Shown here one piece after another: positions 4,630-25,005 of a DNA stretch of 64,000 bases. Both the position numbers and the translations under genes were made by a program. Numbering within the stretch: the stretch's first letter is position 1; each line of letters starts with the position of its first letter. The notes under the pieces were generated by a model. The model was not told the origin of the DNA, did no database searches, and saw nothing but the letters and a program-made list of their open reading frames with translations. Origin of the DNA: an uncultured Acidobacteriota bacterium (GTDB lineage: Bacteria; Acidobacteriota; Polarisedimenticolia; J045); NCBI GenBank assembly GCA_963702425.1, contig CAVPCQ010000032.1, positions 1-64,000 on the forward strand, written 5' to 3'.

Positions 4630-4757
4630 GCTCGGCGCCGTCCGCGGGGAAGGATGGCAGAGCCGCAGCGCGGCGCGGGGTCAGAGTAGCACCGGGAGGG
4701 CTGGATGTGCGGAACGGCACGCTGCGCGGAGGCGAATCGCGACCCCCGAGCACCGGG

Positions 4758-5083
4758 TCACTCCCCGTTCGTCTCCGGACCCAGCAGCCGCAGCCCCGCG
4801 GGCGCGCGATCGCCTCGAAATCGCGGTCGAGCGTGAGCAGCGCCGCCCCGGTTTCGAGGCACGTCGCAGCGATGATGCAGTCGACCGCGCCGCGGACGGC
4901 GACGCCGCGTGCCCGGAGCATCCGGTAGAGCGCGGCGGCGCGGACGTGCGTCGCGAAGCCGGGCTCGAGCCGCGGCAGCCGGCGCAGCGCGAGGTGCACG
5001 ACTTCGCGCTTGGACCTCGCGCCGGTGATCTTCATCGCCCGGGCGACGAGTGTGTCGTCGAGCACGATGTTGGTGCGTCCCAT
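4758..5083 (-). pseudogene. collapsed vapB-vapC toxin-antitoxin pair (VapB N-terminus fused to VapC C-half)
   Basis: MGRTNIVLDDTLVARAMKITGARSKREVV is VapB-like and runs in frame into AAALYRMLRARG..VDCIIAATCLE..LLTLDRDF (PIN C-half); PIN N-terminus absent; probable frameshift near 4800. Confidence 0.75.
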
Positions 5084-5275
5084 GCGTCCTCCTTCGTCAT
5101 CAACACACAATTCACTCTTGTTTGGGTGTATGGCCGCAGGCCGCCGTCAGTCCCGCGAAATGCCCGAGCTCCGGGGGCCCTCGCCCGTCATTCCGCGGGT
5201 AATCCACCCCGGCGCGGGATGCGGGGTGCTTCACTTCCGGCCTCTGTTCAGGATCGGTGCTGATTGGTAATACGA

Positions 5276-5304
5276 TTGACAATTAGCCCCGAAAGGGCTA
5301 CCCT
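5276..5304 (+). promoter_or_regulatory. sigma70-type promoter, probably leaderless
   Basis: TTGACA (5276-5281), 17-bp spacer, TACCCT (5299-5304); GTG start 7 nt downstream with no SD. Confidence 0.65.
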
Positions 5305-5310
5305 CCCCTC

Positions 5311-6537
5311 GTGATCCAGCGCACCCTCGAGCCTCGGCTCCGGGCCCTGGCCCGGAAGTTCCCGATCGTGACCGTCACCGGACCGCGGCAGTCGGGCAAG
5401 ACCACGCTCTGCCGGGCCGCGTTCCCCGACATGCCCTACGTCTCGCTCGAAGCGCCGGACCTCCAAGCTTTTGCGCGCGAGGACCCCCGGGCATTCCTCT
5501 CCCGACACCGCGACGGAGCGATCCTCGACGAGATCCACCGCGTCCCGGAGCTATTGTCCTATCTCCAGGTCCTGGTGGACGAGCGGCCGGCGCGGGGTCG
5601 TTTCGTCCTCTCGGGGTCCGCGAACTTCGCGCTGCTCCAAACCCTCGGCCAGTCGCTCGCCGGGCGCACCGCGCTGCTCGAACTCCTGCCGCTCTCGCTG
5701 GAGGAGATCCGCCGCTTTCCCGACCCGCCGGACGAGTTGCTCGACCTGCTTTGGCGCGGCAGCTATCCCGCGGTCTACGACCGCCGGCTCGAGCCGGGCG
5801 ACTGGTACCCCAGCTACGTGGCGACCTACCTCGAGCGCGACGTGAGGACAATCCTGAAGGTCGGCGACCTGGTGGGGTTCCAGACCTTCCTGCGGCTCTG
5901 CGCCGGCCGCGTGGGCCAGCTCCTCAACCTCTCGGCACTGGGCGCCGACGCGGGGATCAACCACAACACGGCGAAGGCGTGGCTCTCGGTCCTCGAGGCC
6001 GGGTACGTCGCGTGGCGCCTTCCGCCGTTCCACGCCAACGTCACGAAGCGACTGATCAGGACGCCGAAGCTGCACCTGTTCGATACCGGTCTGGCCTGCT
6101 ACCTGCTCGGGATCCGCTCGGCCGATCAACTCCGCGATCACCCGCTCCGCGGCGCGATCTTCGAGACCTGGGTCGCGTCGGAGCTTCTGAAATCGCGCAG
6201 CCACCGGGGCCTGTCGTCGAACCTCTCCTTCTACCGCGACCGCAAGGGGGCGGAGGTCGACTTGCTGGTCGAACTCGGTCGCACGCTGCTCGCCGTCGAG
6301 GCCAAGTCCGGCCAGACCGTCGCGGCGGACTTTTTCGCCGGGCTGCGGGCCTTCGCGTCGCTGGTCAAGGAGGCGCGCCTGCGGCGCGCGGTCCGTAACT
6401 TCGTCGTTTTCGGCGGGGACGAGGCGCAGGAACGAAACGCCGGAACGGTCGTGCCCTGGTCGGAGCTCGACCGCTGCGCGTGGTGGGCCGATGAGGAGTG
6501 GTCGCCGCCTTCCTTGCGACGAGGTCGCCTATCCTAG
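5311..6537 (+). CDS. AAA_14 ATPase with DUF4143 domain
   Basis: GPRQSGKTT Walker A; ILDEIH Walker B; PKLHLFDTG; EVDLLV..VEAKSG nuclease-like end. Confidence 0.92.
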   Translation: MIQRTLEPRLRALARKFPIVTVTGPRQSGKTTLCRAAFPDMPYVSLEAPDLQAFAREDPRAFLSRHRDGAILDEIHRVPELLSYLQVLVDERPARGRFVLSGSANFALLQTLGQSLAGRTALLELLPLSLEEIRRFPDPPDELLDLLWRGSYPAVYDRRLEPGDWYPSYVATYLERDVRTILKVGDLVGFQTFLRLCAGRVGQLLNLSALGADAGINHNTAKAWLSVLEAGYVAWRLPPFHANVTKRLIRTPKLHLFDTGLACYLLGIRSADQLRDHPLRGAIFETWVASELLKSRSHRGLSSNLSFYRDRKGAEVDLLVELGRTLLAVEAKSGQTVAADFFAGLRAFASLVKEARLRRAVRNFVVFGGDEAQERNAGTVVPWSELDRCAWWADEEWSPPSLRRGRLS

Positions 6538-6551
6538 CCACGGGGGTCCCC

Positions 6552-8021
6552 ATGGTTGACACGCTCCTCACCTGGCTCCTCGCCCCGCCCGCCGCGGTCG
6601 GCCTGTTCTTCCTCGCGCGTTGGGCCTGGATCCGCTGGCTCGACGCGCGCCTCGACCGCGCCGTAGACGAGGCGGGCGTCGAGATTGCGAAGCTCGGGCC
6701 CTTCGCCGGCGTCTCGGCCGCCGAGATCGGAGCGGTCGGGGCCTACTCGGTCTACGACGCGATCCGGACGCTCGTCATGGTCGACGACCGTGTGCTCGAT
6801 GCGATCGACTTCTCGCGCGGCGGCGTCTCGGTCGGATTCCAGCGCGTCCAGGACCACCTCGCGACGCGCGTGGCCGGGATCGGCGAGGCCGGGCCGGCGC
6901 TGAAGGACAACCTGCTCGGCTTCTACGCCGACCAGGCGGCCGCCGCGCATCTGGCCGCGGAGGGGCACGTCGTCGAATTCGCACACGGGGCGGCCCCGGG
7001 CGCGGAGCTGCTTGTCAACGGTCACCCGTACCACGTCGAGATCGGGCTCGATCCGGCGGTCGTCAAGCAGCACCTGGCGCAGTTTCCGGATGTGACGGTG
7101 GTCGTCAACCAGGAGCTGGCGCCGCACCTCGAAGGCGTCGCGAATGTCCTCGTCGACCCGGCGCTGTCGCACGCCGACGCCGCGGACCACGTGCAGAAGA
7201 CGGTCGAGCGGGTCGGAGAGCTCGGCAAGCTCGACCTGCACTTCCCGTTCATCACCTTCACGATCGCGCTCTTCGCCTATGCACCGCTGGTCTTCAAGCG
7301 CCGCCTGTCGGTGCGGGATGCCGCACGCTTCACCGTGCTCGATACAGGCCTCATCGGCGGCGGCGCGATGGCGCTGGGCAAGGCCGGAGGCCTCGTCGGG
7401 CTCGGGCTGGGCCCGGTCGGCGCCGCGGCGGGAGGGATCCTCGGCGCGCTCGCCGGCGGCCTCGGCGGCGCAGCCGGGGCGAGCTGGCTCAAGGGGCGCG
7501 GGTACCGCGGCGCCGTCGGGGTCTTCCGGCAGGAACTGGAGGAGTTCGGCGCGGGACTACCGGACGCGCTGATCGAGAAGCGCCGCGCCGCGGACCGCAA
7601 GCAGCGCCGGGTGACCGAGCGCTTCCCGCACTCGTCGGCGGTCCGGGCGTGGCTCTGGCCGACGATGAATGACCGCATCTTCCGCCGCCTGGCGGCGGAC
7701 TTCGTCGCGCTCTTCGCGCGGATCGAAGAGCAGCTCGGTCGCGCGCGGGCGCTGCTCGTCGGCGAAGGACTCACCGACGCGTCGCCGGCGGCGTGCGCCG
7801 CCGCGGCCGGGCGCTACGGGCTGGAACTGGTCCAGGCGGGGGAAATCTGGACGCCGGAGGTCGCGCACCGGGTGCGGGCGATGGCGCGCGCCGCGGCCGA
7901 CGCCAACGCCGAGGCGGAGAAGCTGACGACGGCGCGGGAGGCGAAGCAGCGCGTCATCTCGGCGGTCACGTCGCCGATCCGGCGGGCCTTCGCGCGATGG
8001 AAGGGGTGGCTCGGGAGCTGA
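6552..8021 (+). CDS. membrane protein with glycine zipper
   Basis: N-terminal TM; GxxxG-rich hydrophobic stretch; helical C-terminus; GC-rich codon usage. Confidence 0.7.
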   Translation: MVDTLLTWLLAPPAAVGLFFLARWAWIRWLDARLDRAVDEAGVEIAKLGPFAGVSAAEIGAVGAYSVYDAIRTLVMVDDRVLDAIDFSRGGVSVGFQRVQDHLATRVAGIGEAGPALKDNLLGFYADQAAAAHLAAEGHVVEFAHGAAPGAELLVNGHPYHVEIGLDPAVVKQHLAQFPDVTVVVNQELAPHLEGVANVLVDPALSHADAADHVQKTVERVGELGKLDLHFPFITFTIALFAYAPLVFKRRLSVRDAARFTVLDTGLIGGGAMALGKAGGLVGLGLGPVGAAAGGILGALAGGLGGAAGASWLKGRGYRGAVGVFRQELEEFGAGLPDALIEKRRAADRKQRRVTERFPHSSAVRAWLWPTMNDRIFRRLAADFVALFARIEEQLGRARALLVGEGLTDASPAACAAAAGRYGLELVQAGEIWTPEVAHRVRAMARAAADANAEAEKLTTAREAKQRVISAVTSPIRRAFARWKGWLGS

Positions 8022-8110
8022 CGGAGCACGGCGTCGCTGAAGACGGAGGGCGTCGGCCGGCGAGCCCGGCGTAGTGGCGCGGTGGCGTGGCGGCGCGGTC
8101 CTGCAGGAAA

Positions 8111-8142
8111 GGAAAGGACCCGGCCGTAGCCGGGTCCTTTCC
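8111..8142 (-). terminator. intrinsic terminator hairpin
   Basis: 14-bp stem GGAAAGGACCCGGC / GCCGGGTCCTTTCC, loop TACG on the minus strand, then TTTCC; lies between convergent genes. Confidence 0.75.
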
Positions 8143-8191
8143 CCATCTCGCGAGCTTGGCTTCAGCCGGGCCGGCCTGTTCCTCTCCCCGT

Positions 8192-8560
8192 CTAGGGCTG
8201 GGAAGGAGAAACCTGGCAGGCCCGGTAGCAGTTCCACGCCACCGTGTTGGCGATGCTCTCGCAGCGACGGTAATCCTGGTTGGCGTTGTACCTCCTGATG
8301 TTGCCTTGGTTGATGCACTTCCCCTGGCACAAGAGGTCGGCCGGAGAGCAGCCGTTGATGCAGGCTTCCACCTGGGCGTCGACCTCGGCGAGGGTGGAGT
8401 TCAACGTATCCACGCAGGCCTGCCTTTCCACAAACCACTCGTCGGCACACGCCTGGATGCACTCCGCCTCGTCCGCGCTTGCCACCGGAATACCGAGCGC
8501 CGCCACCGCCATGAACAAGAGGGCGACGCGCACGAGCGTTGTCACAGGTTTCGCACGCAT
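8192..8560 (-). CDS. small secreted 10-Cys protein
   Basis: AAAGGAG RBS; signal peptide ending ASA; 10 cysteines; own terminator. Confidence 0.8.
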   Translation of the reverse strand: MRAKPVTTLVRVALLFMAVAALGIPVASADEAECIQACADEWFVERQACVDTLNSTLAEVDAQVEACINGCSPADLLCQGKCINQGNIRRYNANQDYRRCESIANTVAWNCYRACQVSPSQP

Positions 8561-9173
8561 GTATTCAACTCCTTTTCTCCAGGCGCAGAAGTGCTGGATT
8601 CGTTCGGGCTCCCGATCTTAGTCTGACTTTGATCCGTCCTTCGATCCTCTTGCGGATCGCTCAGCCGTTCGGGCAGCCGGCAGGCAGGAACAACGATGGG
8701 CTGCTCCTGCTCCACCGCGCCTGGCTCCAACGGCGATAAGAACCCCCCGCGCCTTTCCCCATGGGCGCGGCCTGGATGCCCCTGGAACCGCCCCTGGATG
8801 GCGGCCCGCAGGTTCGGGAAGGGCCGGGCAGCTCGGCCTCCCGGACGCGCGTGACCTCACATCCTGGCGGCGTGAATTGGACGCACATCCTCGCCTCCGC
8901 GCAAGCCAGAATGTGAGCCCCATTGGCCCTCCGGACTGCGACGTCCAACTAGTTGATTCTGATAGAGTTGCAGGTTTCTGCTGTGGGGAGCGCGGGTTAT
9001 CCTCCGCCACTTTCGCCCGGGCCGCCGCGCGCCGGCACCATGCACCCATCGGTCGACCGGCGCCGCGGTTCGTCGTATATGCACGGGCACGTCAGCGCCC
9101 GCGGGCTGGGCTCCCCCAGGGGCCGAGGTCCGCACCACCGTCACCGCGGGGGATACGGCCTCCGGGAGGGATC

Positions 9174-12100
9174 GTGCAACGGAGGTTCGGTCGTCGGTCC
9201 CTGGGCGTCATCGCAATCCGTTGGTCCGCAGCGTTGCTGTTGCTCGGCTCGACCGGCTCCGTGTTCGCGGGACCTCCCGCGCTCCGCAACCCCGACGTCC
9301 GCGTCGACACGGGTCGCGGCCTCTACGCGGCCTCCTCCGCCAGGAGGCCCCAGATTCTGCTCCAGGGCGACCGCGCCTACGCGGTCTACCTCGATCAGCG
9401 CTACTTCCTGGCGTTCGAGCCGTACATCAACGTGTCGGTCAATCAGGGCGGCACCTGGAACACGACTGACCGCCGGCTCAACAAGGACGGTGCCGGCGTG
9501 CCCGAGGGCGACACGGCCTACGTGTACCTCAGTAAGCCGGCCGACGCGTACGTCTTCGTTCTCTTCCTCAGCAACGACGGGCTGCAGTCGATCCCCTCGG
9601 TCGTCGCGTCGCCCGACGGTGGGGAGACCTGGAAGCCGCAGGTCGACCTTGCTTTCGCCGACTCCAACTCGCGTGAGGGTTTCTCCATCGCCTCGGCTGC
9701 CGGGGGCAAGGGTTATGTCCTGTGGAGCGACAACCGGCTCAACCTCAGCGGCGACAAGTCGGTCTGGCTCCGCCGGACCACCGACGGCGGTTCGACCTGG
9801 CTGACCGGACAGCAGGTCAACGTCAACGAAGCCAGCCCTCCGCCGTGCATCCTGGACAAGCACGAAGCGTCGACGCAGCCGGTCATGTGCACCGACGGGG
9901 GCAGCCGCCTTCTGGTCGCATGGCGCGACAAGCGAAGCGCAACCAATCCCTGCACCTACGTCACAGCACCGGGCCGGATCGTGCTGCGCTACTCGACCAA
10001 CGGCGGCACCACCTTCTTCCCTGCGTCCGAGACCCGGCTCGACCGCGCCGACGGGACTCCCGGCACCGAGTCCCAGCGTCCCGCGATCGCGTGTAACGCG
10101 AGCGAATTCGCCACGGTCGTCTGGGAGGATGCGCGGGCCGGCGCGACCAGCTGGAACATCTACGCCAACGTCTCGCAGGATGGGGGCGTGACGTGGCGCT
10201 CGGTCGACGTGCGCGTCAGCGGCGGCGGCCCCGCGGGCAAGCAGGCGCGGAATGCGAAGGTCGCCGTCGGCGCCGGCAACCCCGCGCCGATCTACGTCGC
10301 GTGGGAAGACAACCGCGATGGAGGAAAGGACCTCTACTTCTCGCACAGCGACGACGCAGGGCAGACCTGGGCGACGCCGCAGAGGCTGACCACCATCGCC
10401 AGCCCGACCGCGACGCCCCTCGAGAATTGGGACCTCTCCGCGGACGGAACGGCGGTCACCGTGGCCTGGAGCGCGGACAATCGCCCCGGACCACCGACGA
10501 CTCGGCGTTCGGACGTCTTCGAGGTTCACTCTACGGACGGCGGCGTGACCTTCCTGCCCGCCCAACGACTCGATCTCGGGACCGGGCCGAACGTCTTCGA
10601 CTCCGCAGAGCCGGACGGCGGCGCCGCGGGCACGGGGCACATCGCCATCTACGCCGACCTGCGCAACGACGTCGCCGCCGACCCGGACAGGCCGCGCCAC
10701 GACCTCTACAGCGGCGGCAGCGGGACGAGCGTCGACCCGAACGACGCCGATGCCGACGGACTTGCCCGGGCGAACGACAACTGCCCCGATTACCCGAACT
10801 TGGACCAGCGGGACCGTGATTCCGACGGGCGAGGGAACCTCTGCGATCCGCACCCGGACGATCCCGACAACGACCGCGACCTGGACGGGATCGCCTCCAA
10901 CCTGGACAACTGTCCGCTGAGGCACAATTCGAATCAGGACGACACCGACGCCGACGGGTGGGGCGACGCTTGCGACCTCTGCGCCGGGACGGCCGACCAG
11001 CTCCAGCGTGACCTCGACCGTGACGGGACGGGAGATGGCTGCGACGGCGACATCGACGGCGACGGCGTCGCCAACACAAGCGACGGCGACGACGACAGCG
11101 ACGGCTGGACCGACGCGTCCGAGAACTGCCCAACGGTCCCCAACCAGCGGCAGCAGGACGAGGATCACGACGGTCGGGGAGACGACTGTGATACCGACGA
11201 CCTGATCGTCTCGAACGTGAATATCCGGCCCGATGCGCTGCAGCCGCCGCGTATGGACTGGGACAAAGAGCCGGGCGCGTCGAGCTACAACGTGTACGTC
11301 GGCGTAGCCGATCGCCTCGCGACGGGCCACCCCGGGTTCTGCTACGCACCGTCCCTGAGTTTCTATGTCGCGCACCTGGCGGCGCAGCCCGACCCGGGTC
11401 AGATCCTCTGGTTCCTCGTCACGGCGAAGAACGGCAGCGGGACCGAGGGGAGCGCGGGAGCGCGCTCCGACGGCACGAAGCGGCCGAAACCGTCCCCCTG
11501 CGACGAGACGGCCGCTAGAGACTGGGATCTCGACGGCTTCATCAACGCGCGCGACAACTGCCGCTTCGATGCCAACGCCGACCAGACGGACCGGGACAAG
11601 GACGGCCCGGGGGACGTGTGCGACCGGTTCCCGGGCGATCCGCTCGACGACGAACCCGACCGGGACGGTGTCGGCTCCGACGTCGACAATTGTCCGTTCA
11701 TCGCCAATCGCGATCAGGCCGATGCCGATCTCGACAGGATCGGCGATTCCTGTGACGACTGCCCGACGGAATACGACCCGCTGCAGCGGGACTCCAGCGG
11801 CGACGGGATCGGCGATGCGTGTGATCCGGACAGCGACGGCGACGGCGTCCCGAACGCGATCGACGCGGACGACGACAACGACGGCGTCTCCGATGCGACC
11901 GACGACTGCGCGTTCACGGCCGACTCGTCGCAGTCCGACCAGGACCACGACGGGACCGGCGACGCCTGCGACGTCGACGACCGCGAGATCAACGACGTGG
12001 ACTTCTCACGCGGCAGCCGTGAGCGGATCGAGTGGACGCTGGAGCAGGGCGCAGCGTCGTACTCGGTCTACACGGACCTCGTTTCGAACATCAGGCCGGG

Positions 12101-15903: not shown

Positions 15904-16453
15904 GCCGACACACGCGGTCCTCCTCTGGCCTGTCCTTCGTCACAGGCCCGAGCGCCTGATTCCTCGGCACCTTGCGCGCTACGCCGTACGACCGCCGGGC
16001 GGTCCACGGGAGCGTCTTGGCGGCGGGTGCGACCCTCGAGTGCTGCCTCGGGTTGCCGACCCCGGCGACTCCGGCGGCCCCGGCGCAGCGCCGCCCTGAG
16101 GACGCCGCGCTCCCGGACCTCGATCTCGCTTCGGTCGAGTGGGAGGACCGACTATCGGGGGACGCGGCACGTGTCCCGGGCGGTCGGGGTGAGTCGCTTC
16201 GCGGGTCTTCCTGAAGCGACCGGACGCGACCTTCGCCTTGTCACTTGTCCCGCGACCGTCGCGAGCGCAGACCCGGATCCCGTGGACTCGCGCCCGGTCT
16301 CTGCCCTTGCCCCATCGCGGAGCGCGGGTAGGACCGCTTGTCGCCAAATCCACGGCAGCATCGCGTGATTGCAATTCCTCGGATACTGCGCTATACAGCA
16401 CCTCGTCTGCGACGATCGTGAGAAGCGCCAGCAGAGGAGCGTCTCAGCGGTCT

Positions 16454-17536
16454 ATGGAGAAGGTGATCGTTACGGCTGACGAGATATCGCTCGCTCAGCC
16501 GGAGGCGCAGTTTGACTCCAGCGCGGAGAAGCGGACGGCGTCCCCTGTACCGATGTGGACGAAGCTGATCCTCGCACCGCTAGTTCTTGCGCTCCCGCTG
16601 CTAGCCATCGTAACTGCGGTCCTGCGGACGGCAATTCGCAACCAGCCGCCACGCACCCGCCAAGCGATCACTTCGTACCTCTGCTCACTGTTGGTCGCGA
16701 GCGCGCTGCTGACATCGGCATCCACGGTCATTCTGCTTTTCATGCAGCCGAGCCGTTTTGTCATGAGCTCCGGACTGACCGATCTTGACGAGTGCGCTTC
16801 ATTCCCGCATCTGCCGAAGGAACACCCACTGACCGCATCCCAGATCGGCGAGATCTTCAAGCCCTTGGTCGTCGTCATCTCGCCGGAGAACAGCCTCTGG
16901 TTCGGCCGGGGCAGTGAGCCTTCGGACGCGCTCGGCTCCGGACTCCTGCTCTACGCCGGCGTCGACGGCTACCTGTTCGCGACGGCCAAGCACGTCATCG
17001 ACGCCTATTCGAAGGATGGAACCGGCGTGATGCTCCACACAGTGAACGGTGCGTGGGCCCGTGGAGTCGTCGTGGGGCGCCATCAGACAGCCGACGCCGC
17101 GCTGGTCTGGATGCGCCGTGTGATGGGCTCCGGACGATTCTGCCAGCCGGTCGCTTCCGACGAAGAAGTCGCGGTCGGCGACCCGGTCTTCGTCATCGGC
17201 CACCCCGTGGGACTCACGTTCGCGCTCTCAACAGGCATCGTGTCGCGGCTCGCGGACCCGCAGGTGCTCCAGATCAGCGCACCGATCAGCCCGGGCAACA
17301 GCGGCGGACCAGTCTATGACGACAGCGGGAGATTGGTGGGGATCGTCACCTCCATGTTCGACACTCGGCTCGAGTCCCACGCCCAGAATCTGAATTTCGC
17401 GTTGCGAGCGGATGTGCTGACCCAGCCGGCTGGCTGGAGGTTTACGGGCAACGGCGTGGACTCGTATGAGCAGTTCCTCAGTGAATGCCTCCCGCAGCAG
17501 AACAGCGCGGATGTTTCCGCAGGGGACCCCGGATAG
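16454..17536 (+). CDS. membrane-anchored trypsin-like (HtrA/S1C-like) serine protease
   Basis: two TM helices; TAKHV (His), ADAAL (Asp), ISPGNSGGP (Ser). Confidence 0.88.
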   Translation: MEKVIVTADEISLAQPEAQFDSSAEKRTASPVPMWTKLILAPLVLALPLLAIVTAVLRTAIRNQPPRTRQAITSYLCSLLVASALLTSASTVILLFMQPSRFVMSSGLTDLDECASFPHLPKEHPLTASQIGEIFKPLVVVISPENSLWFGRGSEPSDALGSGLLLYAGVDGYLFATAKHVIDAYSKDGTGVMLHTVNGAWARGVVVGRHQTADAALVWMRRVMGSGRFCQPVASDEEVAVGDPVFVIGHPVGLTFALSTGIVSRLADPQVLQISAPISPGNSGGPVYDDSGRLVGIVTSMFDTRLESHAQNLNFALRADVLTQPAGWRFTGNGVDSYEQFLSECLPQQNSADVSAGDPG

Positions 17537-17538
17537 CC

Positions 17539-17808
17539 ATGGCCATCATCAATGTCTTCGTTTACGATTCGACGGAGAACAAACGGGTTCCCGTTGAGTT
17601 GCCCGACGATGCCCCGGTCAACAAGATCATTGCCGTGTTGATCGACAAGCTGTTGCTGCCGAAGAATGGGCCCGACGGGGCACCGTTAAGCTACAAGTTC
17701 CATCATAAGAATTCCGGGCGCCAGGTCCAGGACGGACAGACACTCGCCCAGGCCGGCGTCCAGAGCGGCGACATCCTCCGATTGCAGCCCGAAATCACGG
17801 CGGGTTGA
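17539..17808 (+). CDS. ubiquitin-like protein (YukD/EsaB-like beta-grasp)
   Basis: 89 aa; TLAQAGVQSGDILRL ubiquitin-fold signature; ends EITAG with terminal Gly; directly upstream of E1. Confidence 0.88.
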   Translation: MAIINVFVYDSTENKRVPVELPDDAPVNKIIAVLIDKLLLPKNGPDGAPLSYKFHHKNSGRQVQDGQTLAQAGVQSGDILRLQPEITAG

Positions 17809-18987
17809 TTGAACGCGACGCGCGACCAGGACGTCGGTTCCCCGGACGACAGGTTCGGTCGTCTGCGCCTGATCCCGTGGTGGGACCAGGAGAAGCTCTC
17901 GAGCGCGCGCGTGCTGGTTGTCGGTTGCGGTGCGCTTGGCAACGAACTGCTCAAGAACCTGGCCCTCCTGGGAGTCGGTCGCTTCGTCATTGCTGATCTC
18001 GATACCGTCGAGCTGTCAAACCTCTCGCGCAGCGTGCTCTTCCGGACGGTCGACCTCGGCCGTGGAAAGGCCGAGGCCGCCGCTGGCGGCATCCAACAGC
18101 TCCTCCCCGGCGCGCGCGTGCAGCCCCTGCGAGCTGACATCGTGCACCAACTCGGGTTGGGTCTGTTCTACTGGGCGGACGTCGTTTTCGCCGGCGTTGA
18201 TAACCGCGAAGCGCGCCTCTGGATCAACCGCTCGGCCTGGAAGATGAACCGGCCGTGGGTAGACGGCGCGATCGAAGGCATCGATGGTGTGGTCCGCGTC
18301 TTTCTTCCCGGCCGCCCGCCCTGCTACGAGTGCACGATGGGCGAAATCGACTGGGCCATCCTGCAGAGGCGTATGTCCTGCAACCTCCTATTGCACGGAG
18401 ACCAGGAGCAGGGAAAGGTTCCAACCACGCCGACCATCGCGTCCATCATCGCGGGCATGCAGGTACAGGAAGCCGTCAAGCTGCTGCACGGCCTGCCCAC
18501 GCTTGCGGGCAAAGGTTTCGTGTTCGACGGCCTCAATCACAGCTCCTATGTAGTGGAATACACTGAGAATCTGGCTTGCCAGAGCCACTACACGCTCCAC
18601 ACTGTCCACGAACTGCCCCAGGCCTCACGGGAACTGACACTTTCCGAACTCCTGAAGATCGCGCGCGCGGATCTGGGCGAGCATGCCGCAATCGAATTCA
18701 GCCGTGACATCATCCGTCGCCTCGTCTGTCCCAGGTGCGGTGACGAGGAACTGCCGTTCGCGCCCGTCGGGAGCATTCCGTATGCCCGCGGTCACTGCCC
18801 TCAAGACGGAGCCATGCGCATCGTGGAAACCGTCCACGCCTACACCGGCCAGGAGGACTTCGGCACACGTAGGCTCGACGAGCTTGGCCTGCCGCTCTAC
18901 GACGTCTTTGTCGCCCGCTGCGGCGCGAGGGAGATCGGGTACATCCCCGCCGGCGACGCCCCTCTCGTGCTCGGCGCGGTGATGTGA
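17809..18987 (+). CDS. E1-like ubiquitin-activating enzyme (ThiF family)
   Basis: VLVVGCGALG, DLDTVELSNLSR, VDNREAR; CYEC zinc site; candidate catalytic Cys in RRMSC; C-terminal CPRC..CPQD. Confidence 0.92.
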   Translation: MNATRDQDVGSPDDRFGRLRLIPWWDQEKLSSARVLVVGCGALGNELLKNLALLGVGRFVIADLDTVELSNLSRSVLFRTVDLGRGKAEAAAGGIQQLLPGARVQPLRADIVHQLGLGLFYWADVVFAGVDNREARLWINRSAWKMNRPWVDGAIEGIDGVVRVFLPGRPPCYECTMGEIDWAILQRRMSCNLLLHGDQEQGKVPTTPTIASIIAGMQVQEAVKLLHGLPTLAGKGFVFDGLNHSSYVVEYTENLACQSHYTLHTVHELPQASRELTLSELLKIARADLGEHAAIEFSRDIIRRLVCPRCGDEELPFAPVGSIPYARGHCPQDGAMRIVETVHAYTGQEDFGTRRLDELGLPLYDVFVARCGAREIGYIPAGDAPLVLGAVM

Positions 18988-19772
18988 TGAGTAGGAAGGT
19001 CCCACCCGGGCGCGCCCGGGCACCAGAGGTGACACTCTGCGTCGACGTCCTGCGCAAGATCCGCCGGCACGCACGAGCGTCGCCGACGACGGAGGTCTGC
19101 GGCGTACTGATCGGAACCACAAGTGACGACGGGGTGGTCGTCGAAGAGTGCATCCAGGGCGTGAACGCCGCGCAAGGGAGCGCGCACGTCACATTCACGC
19201 AGGAGGCATGGGAGCATATCTACAGGATCAAGGACCGCGACTACCCCCATCTGCGGATAGTCGGCTGGTATCATTCGCACCCGGGCTTTGGCGTATTTCT
19301 CTCCGACCAGGACGTCTTCATCCAGAAGAACTTCTTTTCCGCCCCAACGCAGATTGCGTGGGTCTACGACCCGCACTCGGATGCTGAAGGCTGTTTCGGG
19401 TACGTCGATGGCGAGATCAAGCGGCTGCGGGACATGCGTGTCCGCGATGACGGGATGCGGGTCTCGACCGACGAGTCGGAGTTTGAGGACCCCGGAGACG
19501 CCGTCCGGCGTCTCGCGATAGACGAGCCTCCAGTCCACCGCCGGAAGGACCTACTCTTCACGGTGCTCTCCTATGTGGCCGCTGTGTTGCTGGGAGCGGC
19601 GCTAGCTCTTTACTTTCTGGGGCCGATGACAGTCGTTGTGCGGGTCCCGAAAGAACAGCATGAAGAGAGGATGCGTTCGCGTCCCGCGGATTCTGAAAAG
19701 CATGCCCCCGCCCGGAAGCCTGTCCCGGAACAGCGCACGGAGGGCACCAGACCCGGCGGAGATCGCAAATGA
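18984..19772 (+). CDS. JAB/MPN+ metalloisopeptidase with TM helix
   Basis: EVCG and GWYHSHPGFGVFLSDQD JAMM motif; hydrophobic helix near the C-terminus. Confidence 0.92.
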   Translation: MMSRKVPPGRARAPEVTLCVDVLRKIRRHARASPTTEVCGVLIGTTSDDGVVVEECIQGVNAAQGSAHVTFTQEAWEHIYRIKDRDYPHLRIVGWYHSHPGFGVFLSDQDVFIQKNFFSAPTQIAWVYDPHSDAEGCFGYVDGEIKRLRDMRVRDDGMRVSTDESEFEDPGDAVRRLAIDEPPVHRRKDLLFTVLSYVAAVLLGAALALYFLGPMTVVVRVPKEQHEERMRSRPADSEKHAPARKPVPEQRTEGTRPGGDRK

Positions 19773-20830
19773 GCGACGAACAGGAGGTCATCAAGATCAC
19801 TGCCGAGGAGCTGGCGGAGATCACGCCGGAAGCGCCCTCGAGCGTGGTTGCGCCGGTCTTCTCCCCTGCGGACCCAAAGGCGAAACACTACGGCAACATC
19901 AACGCCGAACCGGAATTGTCTGCCGTATCCGAGCGGCCCGGGAGCATCCTCTTGCAGGGCTGGTTCTACCTGGGTGTAGCGGGACTGCTGGGGGCCGCCA
20001 TCGGCTGGGGCGTGTGCGAACCGAGCTTCATGGACGGCCCGCAAGGGCACGCATGGGGCAATACCTGGATGATCCCCGCCCTGGTGACGATGATGTGCCT
20101 CGGATTCGCCATTGCCGAGAGCGTCGTCGAAAGGTCGATCCAGAAGGCGCTTGTCCGCTGTGCTCTGGCGGTTCCGCTGGGCGTGATCCTCGGCTTCTTT
20201 TTCGAAGTATTCGCGAATGTGATCTTCAGTATTGGGCTGGAGATTGCTTTTCAACTGGGAGTTCGCAGCGAGCACAACCCGATCTTCTGGATTGCGCGCG
20301 GACTCGCATGGACGGAAATCGGGGTTGTCGGAGGCCTTACCTACGGCGTAATTGGCCGATCAATGAAGAAGGCGAAGTACGGCATCCTGGGTGGCATGCT
20401 CGGGGCCGGCCTGGGCGGCATCATTTTCGATCCCATTGCCCTCGCCCTCAGCGGAGCCGCTCCCAGCAGGGCGGTCGGCTTTGGACTCCTTGGTCTGGCC
20501 ACCGGCGTCGCCATGGGCCTCGTGGAGAGCGCTCTGAAGGACCGCTGGCTGTACGTGTTCGGCGGCCCGCTCGCCGGCAAGCAGTTCATCCTGTACAAGA
20601 ACGTCACGACGATCGGAAGCCGCCAGCAGTGCGACATCTATCTTTTTAAGGACTCAAGCATCCTACCCGAGCACGCGTTCCTCGAAAGTCGCGGAAGCCG
20701 CATCCAGCTTCGCGCTGTCGGGCCGGTGCATCTGTCCGGGCAGCCTGTCCATCTGCGGGTCCTTCAGAATGGCGACCTCATCCAGATCGGCCGCTACTCG
20801 TTCCGCTACCAGGAGAAGCACCGGACGTGA
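19769..20830 (+). CDS. polytopic membrane protein with C-terminal FHA domain
   Basis: several Gly-rich TM helices; GPLAGKQFIL..TTIGS..CDI..H..LQNGDLIQIG FHA pattern; ATGA overlap with JAB gene. Confidence 0.85.
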   Translation: MSDEQEVIKITAEELAEITPEAPSSVVAPVFSPADPKAKHYGNINAEPELSAVSERPGSILLQGWFYLGVAGLLGAAIGWGVCEPSFMDGPQGHAWGNTWMIPALVTMMCLGFAIAESVVERSIQKALVRCALAVPLGVILGFFFEVFANVIFSIGLEIAFQLGVRSEHNPIFWIARGLAWTEIGVVGGLTYGVIGRSMKKAKYGILGGMLGAGLGGIIFDPIALALSGAAPSRAVGFGLLGLATGVAMGLVESALKDRWLYVFGGPLAGKQFILYKNVTTIGSRQQCDIYLFKDSSILPEHAFLESRGSRIQLRAVGPVHLSGQPVHLRVLQNGDLIQIGRYSFRYQEKHRT

Positions 20831-21456
20831 GCGATCCTCTCTGTCCCTACTGTCGCACGGAGATCGACCCGTCAGAGTGCGAGACGCATTACTGCCCTTC
20901 CTGCGGCGCGCCGCACCACCCCGACTGCTTCGAGGATAACCGCGGTTGTACCGTCTTCGGCTGTAGGTCTGCGCCGGTGGAGGAACCCAAGCTGCACATC
21001 TCCGCCGGTGAATTAGGGGCCTCCGACACACGGGCCGCGGTGCTTTCGGCGTCAGGCGCAGACGTTGCGCCCCCTCCCCCTCCGCCTCCCCCGCCGCCGG
21101 CACCGCGAAGTGGCGTTGCGGAACCTCCGCTGGGTTCGGGCCCCATCCCGCCGCCGGTTCCCGTCCCTGAGAAGGAGCTCTTCAGCAGCCTGGGATTCCG
21201 CGCGGCGGCGCCTAGTGCTTCGGCTCCGGCCCCAGCTCCGGATGCCAAGGACCGATTGACGTATGTTATGCTCGGGATCTTCTTGGGACCGTTCGGTGCT
21301 CACAGTTTTTACGCCGGCTTCATCAGCAGAGGGCTGGCGCAGCTGGCGATCACGGTCCTCACTCTCGGGTTCGGCGCGCTGATCGCCTGGGTCTGGGCCG
21401 TCGTGGAGGTTTGCACGATCGAGAAGGACAGTCGCGGCATGCAAATGAGGACATAG
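20827..21456 (+). CDS. prokaryotic RING finger (Prok-RING_1-like) plus TM2/NINE domain; putative E3
   Basis: CPYC..CPSC-GAPHHPDC..C-TVFG-C; poly-Pro linker; LGIFLGPFGAHSFYAG TM2 motif; GTGA overlap. Confidence 0.85.
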   Translation: MSDPLCPYCRTEIDPSECETHYCPSCGAPHHPDCFEDNRGCTVFGCRSAPVEEPKLHISAGELGASDTRAAVLSASGADVAPPPPPPPPPPAPRSGVAEPPLGSGPIPPPVPVPEKELFSSLGFRAAAPSASAPAPAPDAKDRLTYVMLGIFLGPFGAHSFYAGFISRGLAQLAITVLTLGFGALIAWVWAVVEVCTIEKDSRGMQMRT

Positions 21457-21465
21457 GAGACGCAG

Positions 21466-22098
21466 ATGAACTACTTCGTCAAACGTGGTGAGGACCGATT
21501 CGGCCCCTACTCCCTGGCTGACCTTCAGCATTACGTTCAAACCGGCAGCGTTGCGCTCGAGGACCTCGCCCAGAGCGAAGGCATGACCGATTGGGTCCCG
21601 GTGTCCCAGGTGATCGGCGATATTCCCGTTCCGGCCACCGTCGAAGGACCGGGAACAGTCGCTGCACCGGTGGCGGAGCCGAGCGTCCCCCTGCCGCCCA
21701 ATCTCAACTGGTCGATCGTCCTGCTGCTTACATTCGTAACCTGTGGTCTGTTCAGCATCGTCTGGGGGTTCATTCTGGCGACCTGGGCGAAGAAATTGGA
21801 TCGTGACAACCGCTCGGTCGTTTTCATGTTGATCTACGCCGTACTCTCCATTCTGGCGGTCGGCATTGAGGTGAGCGGGGAGCAGCCCGGACTCAGCCTG
21901 TTCGCGCGACTGGGCGGCGCCGTCTGCTACCTGGTCTCGGTGTTCGGGATCAGGTCTTCGATGGAAAGGTACTATACCAGTACAGAAGATATAGGCCTGA
22001 GCCTGAACGGTACCATGACGTTCTTCTTCAACATTTTCTACTTCCAATACCACGTCAATCGCCTCCACCGCTGGAAGCAGACAGGTGTCCTGTCGTAG
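21466..22098 (+). CDS. GYF_2 domain membrane protein (DUF4234-like TM region)
   Basis: YFVKRGEDRFGPYS..EGMTDWVPV GYF_2 pattern; LLTFVTCGLF and YFQYHVN TM region. Confidence 0.8.
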   Translation: MNYFVKRGEDRFGPYSLADLQHYVQTGSVALEDLAQSEGMTDWVPVSQVIGDIPVPATVEGPGTVAAPVAEPSVPLPPNLNWSIVLLLTFVTCGLFSIVWGFILATWAKKLDRDNRSVVFMLIYAVLSILAVGIEVSGEQPGLSLFARLGGAVCYLVSVFGIRSSMERYYTSTEDIGLSLNGTMTFFFNIFYFQYHVNRLHRWKQTGVLS

Positions 22099-22188
22099 TC
22101 CGATGAATCGGTTCGGACAGGTGCGGGCGCACTCCTGCCTGGGAATCGTTCCAGGTCGCCTCGGACTCATGTCCGATCGGGAACGCTG

Positions 22189-22791
22189 ATGATCTCGCCA
22201 CGTGTTCGTCGTCTGCAGCACGATTTTGAAATCCTGCGCCGACGTCTCGACAATTGGCCGCTGATCAAGATCACCGGCACTGCCGGGCTGCCGCCCGAGA
22301 TGTACCGTTTCACATATTACGTTCGCGGCCTTTATGTCGATCCTGGTGGCGACATTCTGGAGCGCGAGACTCACGTGCTCGAAGTGAATCTCTCACTCGG
22401 ATACCCGCGCCGTGCGCCCCAGTGCAGGATGTTGACCCCCGTCTTTCATCCCAACTTCGATGAAGCCACGGTCTGTGTAGGGGACTTCTGGGCCGCCTCG
22501 GAAGGTCTCGATGATCTGGTGATACGAATCGGCTACATGATCGCTTACCAGGAGTACAACACCAAGAGCCCTCTGAACGGCCTGGCGGCAAGATGGGCTG
22601 CGCAGAACATCCATCTCCTGCCGGTCGATGCCCGGACCATCGCGCCGCCGCAGCCCGAGCCGCAGAGTTTCGCGGACGCTGACCAGACCGAGCCGGAGAG
22701 CTCCGCACAGCAGGCCGCGAAGCCGGCCCCGGAAACCCCGGACTCACGTCCCTCGACCGCTCCCTGGTCAGAGAAGATCGTTATCCGCTAG
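22189..22791 (+). CDS. E2 ubiquitin-conjugating enzyme
   Basis: YPRRAP..TPVFHPNF..VC (HPN plus catalytic Cys); SPLNGLAA. Confidence 0.92.
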   Translation: MISPRVRRLQHDFEILRRRLDNWPLIKITGTAGLPPEMYRFTYYVRGLYVDPGGDILERETHVLEVNLSLGYPRRAPQCRMLTPVFHPNFDEATVCVGDFWAASEGLDDLVIRIGYMIAYQEYNTKSPLNGLAARWAAQNIHLLPVDARTIAPPQPEPQSFADADQTEPESSAQQAAKPAPETPDSRPSTAPWSEKIVIR

Positions 22792-23088
22792 CCGGATCTC
22801 GCCAGTCCTGGGCGTCAGCGAACACTCGGGTTCGCCCACCGTGAACGTCACGTCCGTCCTGCTCACGCGCTCTCCACAGGCAACCGCTCCCCCACAAGGC
22901 GCACCCCCCGGCCCGTGGCTTCCACCGGGATGTCGGCGATGTGCATCGGGATGGTGTCCGACAGCGGGAAAGGGCGATTCCGCTCGTGTTCCGTGACGGG
23001 AACCGAGCAGCACCATCGAGCCCCAAGGGGCCGCGGCCCCGAGGCCGCGCCGCCGTCATCAGGGTCCGAAATCGCTTCGCTCCCTCAC

Positions 23089-25005
23089 TCACGCCAGAAT
23101 CTGCGCTTCCATCGGCGCGAGGTCCACGAACAGCGCTGCCAGTTCGCCGGCTGCCACCACCGCATCGTTGCGAAAGACGCGCCCATCCGTGATGAGTTGG
23201 ACCGTATCGCCGCCCCGCGTGCCGCGGTTGCTGAAGCACACCGACATCGGTCGCGGCTGCCGGTTGAGATCCGCGTCCACCAGCACGAACCCCTTGAAGC
23301 GCTGGGTCGTACTCGTATTGGCCACCACCAGCACCTCGGCATCCGAGAGGATACGGCTGAAGGCGACGACGCCGCCCAAGCCCCCGCCGTGCCCGAAGTC
23401 GCGGCCGTTCCCCGAGACCTCGCGGAAGTACAACCGGCCGTACCGCAAGGCCGGGCGCTCCCGGCGGCATCGGCTGAGATCCCGGATCGCGGTGTAGATG
23501 GGGGCGTTTCGGTCGAATGCGCCCGGCTTGCCCCAGAGCGCTTCCCGTGACGACTCGTTGGACGTCAGGTCGGGATTCCCGTTGGCGTCCTTCGTCCCGT
23601 CGAGACCCTGTTCGTCGCCGTAGTAGACCGACGGGATGCCCTGCAGCCCGAACATCAACGAGTAGCCGAGCGTAATCTGGTCGGCGTACGACTGGGGGTG
23701 GTTGAAACGCCGCTTCTGGTCATGGTTGTCGAGGAAGCTGACGAAGTAGCGCCCGGCCTCGCCGTGCGTGCTGAGCAGTTCCTTTTCCACCGCCTTGCGG
23801 TCCTCAAACACCCGGCGCAGCGTTTCGACCGGCTCCATGCTCTTCGCCACCGCCGGCAGTTTGTAGAACAGGGGGAAGTCGAGCGCCGCGTCCACCCCGA
23901 AACTGCCCGCCTCCGACGTGTTGCGCCCCACGAACGCGGCAATCGCCTGCTCGTCGTCGTAGACCTCCGCAAAGGTGAAGAAGTTCTTCTTGCCGATGCT
24001 CAGCGCGAACTCGCGGGTGGCGTTGCCGAAGTACTCGATCATCTGCGGGTGGACGTACTTCACCGTGTCGATTCGGAACCCGTCGAACCCGTATCGCGCC
24101 AGAAGGTACGAGTAGGCCCCGACGAGCGCTGACAGCACGGGGTGCCGACCGAGCGCCCTGCGCACCGCCTCCTGCCCCGCGACCGCCGCGTCGTACTCGA
24201 CGACGAGCTGGCGCATCGTGTCGAAGTCGCCGCGAACGAACGTGTCCGGCAGCACCTGGCCGCCGGGCTCGCGCGGCACGTCGTCGGTCAGCTTCGAACC
24301 GCGCCGGCGAAAGAACAGGTGCGACCGCAGCTCCTCAGGGTACACCGCATCGTCGGCCGAGATGGCGGTGTTGGGCGGAAAGCCGTCCTCCCAGTCCGCG
24401 CGGGGGAACCCCAGGCCGTTCAGCCAGCGGACGGACGGCTCGGCGCCCAGCGCAGCGTTCATGACGCCGTGATCGGCGACCACCGCACGGCCCTCGCCGT
24501 CGACCACGTAGTCGAACACGCGGCCCGCGTGGTTGAGAACGATGTCGAGCACGACGTAGATGCCGCGGGCGTGTGCCGCGTCAACGAGCTCGAGCAGCTC
24601 GGCTTCGGCCGTCTGACGGGTGCCGTCCGAGGCGAAGCGCTCGTCGATGTTGAGGAAGTCCTGCGTCGCGTAGCCGTGGTAGTTGAACTCCCAATCGTCG
24701 GGCCGCGGGTTCTTGACGACCGGGCTCAACCAGACCGCGCCGCAGCCGAGCTCGCGGAGGTAGTCGAGCTGGGCCGTGACGCCCTTGAACGTCCCGCCCT
24801 GGCGCCTCGAATAGGCGCGATCCCACGTGCAGGCGGGCGCGACGTCCGTGTTGTTGAACCGGTCGATGAAGACGAAGTAGATCCACACGTCGCGCCAGTC
24901 GGCCGGGGATGGGTGGGTGTGCCCCGCGAGCGCCGCCGCCCGCGCATCGGCGATGGCCTGCCGGATCGAGGGATCGTCGAGTCGCGTGATCTCTGTGTGG
25001 CTCAT
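23089..25005 (-). CDS. alpha-amylase family GH13 glycosidase
   Basis: YHGY, DIVLNH, GFRIDTVKY, AEVY, FLDNHD, GIPSVYYGDEQ. Confidence 0.93.
   Translation of the reverse strand: MSHTEITRLDDPSIRQAIADARAAALAGHTHPSPADWRDVWIYFVFIDRFNNTDVAPACTWDRAYSRRQGGTFKGVTAQLDYLRELGCGAVWLSPVVKNPRPDDWEFNYHGYATQDFLNIDERFASDGTRQTAEAELLELVDAAHARGIYVVLDIVLNHAGRVFDYVVDGEGRAVVADHGVMNAALGAEPSVRWLNGLGFPRADWEDGFPPNTAISADDAVYPEELRSHLFFRRRGSKLTDDVPREPGGQVLPDTFVRGDFDTMRQLVVEYDAAVAGQEAVRRALGRHPVLSALVGAYSYLLARYGFDGFRIDTVKYVHPQMIEYFGNATREFALSIGKKNFFTFAEVYDDEQAIAAFVGRNTSEAGSFGVDAALDFPLFYKLPAVAKSMEPVETLRRVFEDRKAVEKELLSTHGEAGRYFVSFLDNHDQKRRFNHPQSYADQITLGYSLMFGLQGIPSVYYGDEQGLDGTKDANGNPDLTSNESSREALWGKPGAFDRNAPIYTAIRDLSRCRRERPALRYGRLYFREVSGNGRDFGHGGGLGGVVAFSRILSDAEVLVVANTSTTQRFKGFVLVDADLNRQPRPMSVCFSNRGTRGGDTVQLITDGRVFRNDAVVAAGELAALFVDLAPMEAQILA

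Follow-up and report, generated by a model that had tools for sequence, protein, structure and literature searches.

Bacterial operons combining a YukD-like ubiquitin-like protein (Ubl) with E1, E2, JAB and Prok-RING_1 proteins were reportedly predicted by Burroughs, Iyer and Aravind in Mol Biosyst in 2011, along with their domains and gene neighbourhoods, a prediction that PMC3417536 cites. With its Ubl, E1, E2, RING and JAB components, this operon class is the bacterial system nearest in make-up to eukaryotic ubiquitination. Here, we analyzed a 64,000-nucleotide stretch of DNA from an uncultured Acidobacteriota bacterium (assembly GCA_963702425.1, contig CAVPCQ010000032.1, positions 1 to 64,000 of the forward strand; the window, hereafter), in which Pfam domain matches placed eight same-strand genes in one operon (16454-22791, plus strand). 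Co-linear genes for a YukD-like Ubl, a ThiF-family E1, a UQ_con E2, a JAB peptidase and a RING-like finger, the last with a match under the Pfam cut-off, assign the operon to this class; compared with the class predicted in 2011, it has the same domains and the same kind of membrane-associated partners. Our subject is a short peptide, called the tag below, with the consensus [DE]-[KR]-h-x-h-[ST]-x-x-[DE]-h (h, I/L/V), which recurs in the protease, the FHA-domain membrane protein and the RING protein of this operon, and the first (strand) half of which forms the tail of its E2.

Short strand-forming peptides shared by conjugation enzymes have counterparts elsewhere. The LC3-interacting region or Atg8-interacting motif (LIR/AIM), [W/F/Y]-x-x-[L/I/V], is carried by Atg3, Atg4 and receptors and is bound by Atg8. 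The tag is likewise a strand motif common to an E2, a protease and adaptors, and its E2 copy follows a conserved Trp (D-P-W); unlike LIR/AIM, the protease, FHA and RING copies of the window's clade contain no aromatic residue. Identity with LIR/AIM was therefore rejected, because an aromatic residue with L/I/V at +3 was not found, the E2 tail reading W-x-x-[KR]-I and not W-x-x-h. SUMO-interacting motifs (SIMs) occur in flexible extensions of the SUMO E1 subunit SAE2 and of SENP proteases, and SIMs in E3s hold SUMO in place on the E2, according to a 2025 review, which also states that no prokaryotic system is known so far to share the SIM-binding groove (PMC12687455). Like SIM networks, the tag has a short hydrophobic strand, [VIL]-x-[VIL], next to acidic or Ser/Thr residues, lies in extensions that are probably flexible in the protease and FHA protein, recurs on E1, the RING-adjacent E3, the protease and other partners, and occurs in two-copy arrays. 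The aliphatic core of a SIM is seen as K-I-V-I in the protease and E2, K-L-S-V in the RING protein and I-K-I in the FHA protein, and the acidic/Ser/Thr flanks as a [DE] ahead of the basic residue, with the strand followed by [ST]-x-x-[DE] or [ST]-x-[DE]-[DE]. Unlike a SIM, the tag is bacterial, has a conserved basic residue ahead of the strand and includes an obligatory helix N-cap half, h-[ST]-x-x-[DE]-h. A third likeness is with GarA/OdhI and DgcB (PDB 2kb3, 6hc0 and 6hc1), in which a protein with a C-terminal FHA domain likewise begins with a conserved [ST]-containing peptide. Their tails, however, are phospho-Thr peptides held in a pocket that is lost here, whereas in our operons Ser occurs as often as Thr and further proteins bear the tag too. 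Our literature search, with the 2011 prediction paper and all supplements outside its scope, found no experimental study of the operon class and no description of the tag; a bioRxiv paper on bacterial Ubl structures mentioned neither RING, FHA nor YukD.

Results

All four peptides were confirmed by translation at the places named by the first-pass annotation, which had been made from the letters of the window alone. The first copy, EKVIVTADEI (16457..16486, plus strand), forms the extreme N-terminus of the protease; the second, EVIKITAEEL (19784..19813, plus strand), is close to the N-terminal end of the FHA membrane protein; and the third, PKLHISAGEL (20986..21015, plus strand), is immediately C-terminal to the RING finger, each being an exact translation. 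The half tag PWSEKIVIR (22762..22788, plus strand) is found at the E2 C-terminus, where positions 22759-22791 translate as APWSEKIVIR followed by a stop codon; it corresponds to the strand half of the consensus only and is preceded by D-P-W in orthologues. Mimicry of the Ubl tail (ISAG in the RING copy compared with ITAG of the Ubl C-terminus) was considered and rejected, since the A-G is unconserved in orthologues.

Lack of conservation in orthologues had been set beforehand as a refuting condition; the motif was clearly conserved, in about 75 orthologous operons. Species-representative genomes were scanned with the FHA protein, yielding 272 related stretches, of which the best 80 were analyzed; homologues of the eight proteins were present in 74 to 80 of these loci. 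In all four families the peptides formed conserved islands within variable tails or linkers (about 75 orthologous operons). With residue counts given after the letters, the protease columns read [ED]-[KR]-[IV]-[VI]-[IV]-[S48 T9 G8]-x-x-E68-[VIL] (69 sequences), the RING columns E-P-K67-[LIV]-x-[VIL]-[S50 T11]-x-x-[D41 E32]-L59, with A6 and G3 at the [ST] position (73 sequences), and the FHA protein columns [IL]-[K60 R18]-I70-T76-x-[ED]-D70-L72-A64 (79 sequences), with I10 and T11 of the FHA protein at least 90% conserved in 49 sequences. The E2 columns read D52-P55-W57-x-x-[K46 R10]-I58-[V40 S11]-I51 and then the end or a few residues (74 sequences), and the tail was missing in 11-14 of the 74 orthologues. 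Codons of the motif columns varied synonymously and freely, indicating selection on the peptide. This conservation makes the case convincing, whereas the statistics of the window alone were marginal, and we are confident that the tag is a real, conserved motif shared by these proteins.

For the within-window comparison, the operon proteins were shuffled with matched composition (2000 shuffles each). The score of the protease matrix at the RING site was reached by 142/2000 shuffles and at the FHA site by 197/2000; conversely, the score at the protease site was reached by 54/2000 shuffles with the RING matrix and by 587/2000 with the FHA matrix. The likeness of the window peptides alone was thus marginal against shuffles, the EKIVI strand excepted, as the score of the protease EKIVI 5-mer at the E2 C-terminus was reached by only 2/2000. 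A genome-wide background of long open reading frames (ORFs) gave smaller per-position values of about 2e-5; this background includes many spurious high-GC frames, and the shuffles were trusted more. We also scanned 60 complete loci individually, deriving each matrix from the other loci and recording the best non-self match. The protease N-terminus was the top match of the RING matrix in 43/60 loci and of the E2 5-mer in 42/60, while the E2 C-terminus was the top match of the protease 5-mer in 37/60 and the RING site that of the protease 9-mer in 23/60. For the matrix built from the FHA copies of the window's clade, no consistent partner emerged across the 60 loci.

To assess the depth of the FHA copy, 1.84 billion cluster representatives were searched with a profile, giving 409 proteins at E 1e-30 or better; the best 150 of these were used, and removal of 23 sequences shorter than 300 residues left 127 representatives (clusters at 50% identity). 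The strict motif h-x-h-[ST]-x-x-[DE]-h was present within the first 80 residues in 80/127 of these FHA membrane proteins and a relaxed form in 105/127; when the first 80 residues were shuffled, on average 2.4 and at most 7 of the 127 matched. Its start fell within the first 15 residues in 74/80, often near residue 4-12, and its density was 0.0083 per residue in the N-termini versus 0.00012 elsewhere in the 127 proteins, a difference of about 70-fold. Two strict copies were found in 4/127 representatives, and about ten had two tag-like copies by eye. The consensus of this wide family, D-[DE]-[KR]-I-[RKV]-I-[ST]-x-[DE]-[DE]-[LVI], equals the pattern of the protease and RING copies, and the kinship of the FHA copy with the others, judged by sequence, appears clear only at this breadth. 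Two divergent operons of the window's phylum, with FHA proteins 31-34% identical to that of the window, also kept the tag (PIRITREDL and KIRITTDEL); in one of them EKLVVTRADI was also found on a Zn-ribbon protease, in the segment that separates the ribbon from the membrane helices.

A diverse metagenomic set was fetched with a diverse alignment, comprising 43 of 80 loci after 37 loci under 5 kb had been dropped and including the near-duplicates L141/L142, L146/L147 and L186/L190, and the strict motif was counted outside the aligned domains. It was present in 32/44 FHA proteins, 10/15 proteases, 5/29 E1s (directly ahead of the conserved DDRFxR), 4/38 RING proteins and 4/34 E2s; three of the four E2 copies lay in N-terminal extensions, two of these in near-duplicate loci, and one of the four E2s had two tag-like copies. 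No motif was found in the diverse Ubls (0/26) or GYF proteins (0/5). The E1 N-terminus of the acidobacterial set had the strict motif in 2/71 and the relaxed form in 22/71. RING-protease fusions of other lineages bear the tag right after the RING, as in the RING protein of the window. Twenty diverse operons spanned Ubl to E2, and the FHA-protein tag was present in 20/20 (18 by rule; L180 and L191 on inspection), although 11 of them had no protease homologue and 16 no GYF protein; since the tag persists without them, neither the protease nor the GYF protein can be the general receptor. As a side observation, several loci of other lineages (L141 9030-9876, L120 9987-10800, L177 8228-9062, L186 7742-9002) encode an E2 with an N-terminal zinc-ribbon extension and a protease fused to a RING, and in such zinc-module E2s and RING-fused proteases the tag, if present, comes after the zinc module. 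When all ORFs of at least 100 amino acids in the genome of the window were scanned with a combined matrix, the only matches besides the operon were internal segments of unrelated ORFs, the best being in a secreted protein on contig C15.

A motif of the form h-[S/T/D/N/G]-x-x-[E/D]-h is a helix capping box with a hydrophobic staple, and the second half of the tag conforms to it at each residue. The [ST] position of the tag tolerates S, T, G, D, N and A, the residues that helix N-caps favour. In AlphaFold2 (AF2) models, a helix begins past the cap residue: a short helix spans residues 12-16 of the FHA protein, directly after T11, and residues 8-13 of the protease, directly after T7, both at a modest predicted local distance difference test score (pLDDT). 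The tag therefore reads, in these models, as a short strand leading into an N-capped helix turn; the E2 tail contains the strand half only. Unlike a bare capping box, the tag also has a conserved strand half, a terminal position and a distribution over several operon proteins. The N-tail of the FHA protein had a pLDDT of 50-60, compared with 36-42 in the linker after it, and that of the protease 61-64, both being unpacked on their own proteins. An earlier claim that all copies probably lie in disordered segments was supported for the FHA and protease tails (pLDDT 50-64, no packing), while for the RING and E2 copies the indication comes from their variable flanks. No sign of a structural role of the tag within its own protein was seen, the tails being left unpacked in whole-protein AF2 models of the FHA protein and the protease.

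Discussion

Our data suggest, with a probability of roughly 70%, that the tag docks its carriers onto one common partner. The first-pass annotation had proposed either a Ubl-interacting motif or a docking motif common to the components that brings the complex together, and the spread of the tag over the FHA scaffold, protease, RING protein and E2, elsewhere over E1 and never over the Ubl, fits the second proposal; the docking itself is what we infer from this spread. The tag would take the form of a beta-strand running straight into an amphipathic helix turn, with [ST] as the N-cap, [DE] as its capping-box partner and the flanking hydrophobic residues as the staple. It would be displayed on flexible ends, namely the N-tails of the FHA scaffold and protease, the post-RING linker and (as a half tag) the E2 C-terminus, and in other lineages the N-termini of E1 and E2. 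All copies would bind one site on a shared partner, which would gather the soluble enzymes and membrane components at the membrane; such a partner would be expected to occur in every operon of the class and to lack the tag itself.

By analogy, we tentatively favour the Ubl itself as this partner, at somewhat less than even odds. It is preferred because it is never tagged, is the most conserved of the operon proteins (mean column identity, 92% in 49 sequences) and would give an arrangement that mirrors SUMO; such high conservation fits a hub with many binding partners. The strand of the tag would add to the edge of the Ubl beta-sheet, much as SIMs pair with SUMO and LIRs with Atg8, which would let E1, E2, E3, the protease and the scaffold each bind the Ubl, or proteins modified by it, without a covalent bond. 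Whether the analogy extends to a bacterial SIM/LIR-type reading of the Ubl, with one peptide on E1, E2, RING E3, protease and scaffold binding the YukD-like Ubl and so organizing conjugation at the membrane, is a possible but doubtful proposition.

Several observations weigh against docking on the Ubl. Covariation, computed as mutual information with average product correction (MI-APC) and relating 12 tag columns in the FHA protein to the columns of Ubl, E1, JAB, E2 or FHA body in 96-108 loci, gave similar top scores of 0.20-0.28 and so singled out no receptor. Four Arg residues lie in the loop joining the two hydrophobic helices of the protease (residues 36-97; window 16559-16750), and by the positive-inside rule the protease N-tail could be periplasmic, beyond the reach of a cytoplasmic Ubl. 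A SIM is strand-only, while half of the tag is a helix cap; because its second half is predicted to cap a helix at the N-terminal end and to form a hydrophobic staple, the tag does not appear to be a plain SIM, the E2 copy alone being confined to the strand. In the window's clade, moreover, the FHA copy resembles the RING and protease copies weakly. Strict copies were lacking in 34/38 RING proteins and 30/34 E2s of the diverse operons, which indicates that the tag is dispensable on some enzymes. The bare pattern is also unspecific, matching the JAMM active site as well as strand-to-helix junctions inside unrelated proteins encoded in this genome; among the JAB homologues, it matched the JAMM site F-L-S-x-x-D-[LV] only (17/35). 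Separately, a comparison of clades was rejected as evidence, since the Ubl changes V19A/R39Q, the I-to-V exchanges in the protease and FHA tags and the loss of the E2 tail all occurred in one clade and amount to a single event.

The alternative that survives best, though we consider it unlikely, places the receptor site on the FHA-fold domain of the membrane scaffold, whose own tail would bind it in autoinhibition or in daisy-chain oligomers while the other tags dock there independently of phosphate. Its appeal lies in the distribution of the tag, which is most universal on the FHA membrane protein (80-105/127), the core scaffold of the operon class, and is absent from the lone E1-E2-JAB operon found without an FHA protein (L201; n=1). 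The FHA domain of the AF2 model matches GarA/OdhI at a template modelling score of about 0.9, and GarA/OdhI and Bdellovibrio DgcB (6hc0, 6hc1), among the best structural matches, bind their own N-tails according to the titles of their entries. In type VIIb secretion, a YukD Ubl packs non-covalently on FHA domains, as reported in PMC12637312, so that FHA domains can be docking modules. The phosphopeptide pocket, however, is lost: alignment of the window FHA domain (20531-20827) to GarA showed GR replaced by GS, SRRH/SRxH by LPEH and NGT by a gap, and the wide FHA-family consensus likewise reads IGSSP and V-x-P-x-HA. Canonical FHA binding requires phospho-Thr, but S and T were found 42 and 38 times, respectively, among 80 tags, and G, D, N and A were tolerated. 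A canonical FHA phospho-ligand was accordingly rejected, Ser being as common as Thr and the phosphate-holding Arg, Ser and Asn being gone from the domain. Furthermore, AF2 did not dock the N-tail onto the FHA domain in cis (pLDDT 50-60), and FHA loops are generally known to take extended peptides, not a strand plus helix.

Returning to the other candidates for a docking partner, we regard it as improbable that the tag is read by another untagged or universal core enzyme, either the JAB peptidase or the catalytic body of E1 or E2, for example as a handle to a membrane-anchored deconjugase. The JAB protein is universal in the operons, free of the tag outside its active site and membrane-anchored like its tagged partners. 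Covariation, however, did not set JAB apart from the others, with a top score of 0.28 against 0.20-0.23, each lying at about 5 standard deviations. As for E1 and E2, both are tagged themselves in some lineages.

There is only a slim chance that the copies have no common partner and are generic strand-to-capped-helix junctions, alike by convergence. The same pattern does occur in folded cores, both in JAB (at the JAMM site and in the first strand and helix) and in unrelated proteins, and the window-only statistics were marginal. Convergence, however, leaves three things unexplained: the position of the copies on termini and linkers amid variable flanks; the near-identity of E-K-I-V-I in the protease and E2 (2/2000 shuffles; top match in 37-42/60 loci); and the hopping of the tag between E1, E2, RING protein and protease across lineages, together with the duplicated tails.

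Slightly less probable still is a conjugation site of the SUMO-consensus kind around an acceptor lysine, with the tagged proteins as auto-modified substrates. This is consistent with the conserved basic residue in the strand half with its acidic neighbours, and every carrier is an operon protein within reach of the membrane E2/RING pair. The motif-core Lys, however, was present in 53/80 of the FHA family, 54/69 proteases, 67/73 RING proteins and 46/60 E2 tails (62/78 in another set), being replaceable, mostly by Arg, whereas the hydrophobic residues, the N-cap and the acid were more invariant; an obligatory acceptor lysine was rejected because 8 to 34% of copies have no Lys. The least credible option is that the trypsin-like protease of the operon recognizes or cleaves the motif, with its own N-terminal copy as a pseudo-substrate. 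Although the protease bears a copy and aliphatic strands such as K-I-V-I-S resemble the preferences of HtrA-type proteases, the FHA-protein tag persists in 10/11 complete diverse operons without a protease homologue and AF2 keeps the N-tail out of the active site.

The shared tag offers a concrete and cheap entry point into this operon class, as peptides of 10-20 residues could be used to fish for the receptor and point mutations to probe assembly at the membrane. Should the Ubl prove to be the receptor, this would be the first prokaryotic SIM-like reading, and a peptide that reads the Ubl would mean that motif reading of Ubls predates eukaryotes, giving a handle on the origin of the SUMO/ubiquitin split. 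If the receptor is instead the degenerate FHA domain, the tag would define a phospho-independent mode of FHA docking. The consensus can also serve as a practical genome marker for further components and possible clients.

Genes and further features of the operon

All eight genes are on the plus strand, and the gene order is shared by the 25 loci inspected of the 80 genome loci and by diverse metagenomic loci. The first gene (16454..17536) encodes a membrane-anchored Trypsin_2 protease of 360 amino acids (Pfam Trypsin_2, E 4.5e-21) composed of the N-tail, two hydrophobic helices and the protease domain. Its H180, D214 and S283 showed no variation across 54 sequences, and its AF2 model (mean pLDDT, 85.1) has helices at 34-60 and 66-97; three Pro residues are conserved in the first hydrophobic helix. 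The YukD-like Ubl (17539..17808; 89 amino acids; Pfam YukD, E 3.1e-13) is without the tag and ends in ...LRLQPEITAG. This C-terminus is invariant, with Ala-Gly in place of Gly-Gly (window 17539-17811), and some orthologues have 1-10 residues beyond it, which would need processing. The ThiF-family E1 (17809..18987; 392 amino acids; Pfam ThiF, E 7.2e-53), whose window copy has no tag, opens with TTG immediately past the Ubl stop codon and in frame with the Ubl. It is followed by a JAB/MPN+ peptidase with a C-terminal membrane helix and no tag (18984..19772; Pfam JAB, E 1e-15).

The FHA membrane protein (19769..20830; 353 amino acids; Pfam FHA and Yop-YscD_cpl) consists of six membrane helices and a C-terminal FHA-fold domain, its AF2 model (mean pLDDT, 79.5) showing six long helices and a beta-sandwich. 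The RING protein (20827..21456; 209 amino acids) combines a RING-like zinc finger, a poly-proline linker and a C-terminal TM2 membrane domain (E 1.5e-8); its Prok-RING_1 match (E 1.5e-4, 22.1 bits) is under the Pfam cut-off of 29.1, and the Cys/His pattern is kept in orthologues. The last two genes encode an untagged membrane protein with a GYF_2 domain (21466..22098; Pfam GYF_2, E 1e-9) and the E2 (22189..22791; Pfam UQ_con, E 1.5e-7), which has an HPN...C active site and a long, variable C-terminal tail.

The operon is probably a horizontally acquired island, as indicated by its lower G+C, its scarcity in genomes of the family and phylum and the distance of its nearest relatives. G+C was 0.62-0.64 across the operon stretch (window 16000-24000) versus mostly 0.67-0.73 in the surroundings; the E2 query gave zero matches among 22 searched genomes of the same family; a search of 401 genomes from the phylum with the FHA membrane protein gave only three more true matches, spread over two other genomes; and the nearest relatives, in Acidobacteriota, are about 60% identical. 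E2 matches within the window's own class (L002-L004 and L086) were excluded because they belong to a different Ubl system. At L086 (G031:C4:51000-69000), in a genome of that class, the minus strand at about 2500-10400 encodes an E1, an E2-like protein, a 400-amino-acid protein without assignment, a Ubl ending in ...IDAGGAGA, a JAB protein, an AAA+ ATPase-like ORF and a 600-amino-acid ORF; this system has no FHA or RING protein, and inspection by eye found no tag.

GYF domains bind proline-rich peptides, and a second, proline-rich class of short conserved motifs was found in the protease, E2 and RING proteins, which for this reason may be ligands of the GYF_2 protein of the operon. In the protease, residues 25-35 (16526-16558) read E-P-K-L-P-P-x-[VI]-P-W-W in orthologues, ahead of the first membrane helix, and are degenerate in the window copy; in the E2, residues 143-154 (22615-22650), past the E2 core, read L-L-P-[IV]-D-x-R-x-[IV]-A-P-P in orthologues; and in the RING protein, residues 82-91 (21070-21099) form a poly-proline run in the linker. 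The JAB protein has a further motif after its membrane helix (residues about 213-226; 19620-19660), P-R-[IV]-x-[LV]-[VM]-P-V-P-V-D-P-x-T-G in orthologues and degenerate in the window copy (MTVVVRVPKEQ), which would face the far side of the membrane.

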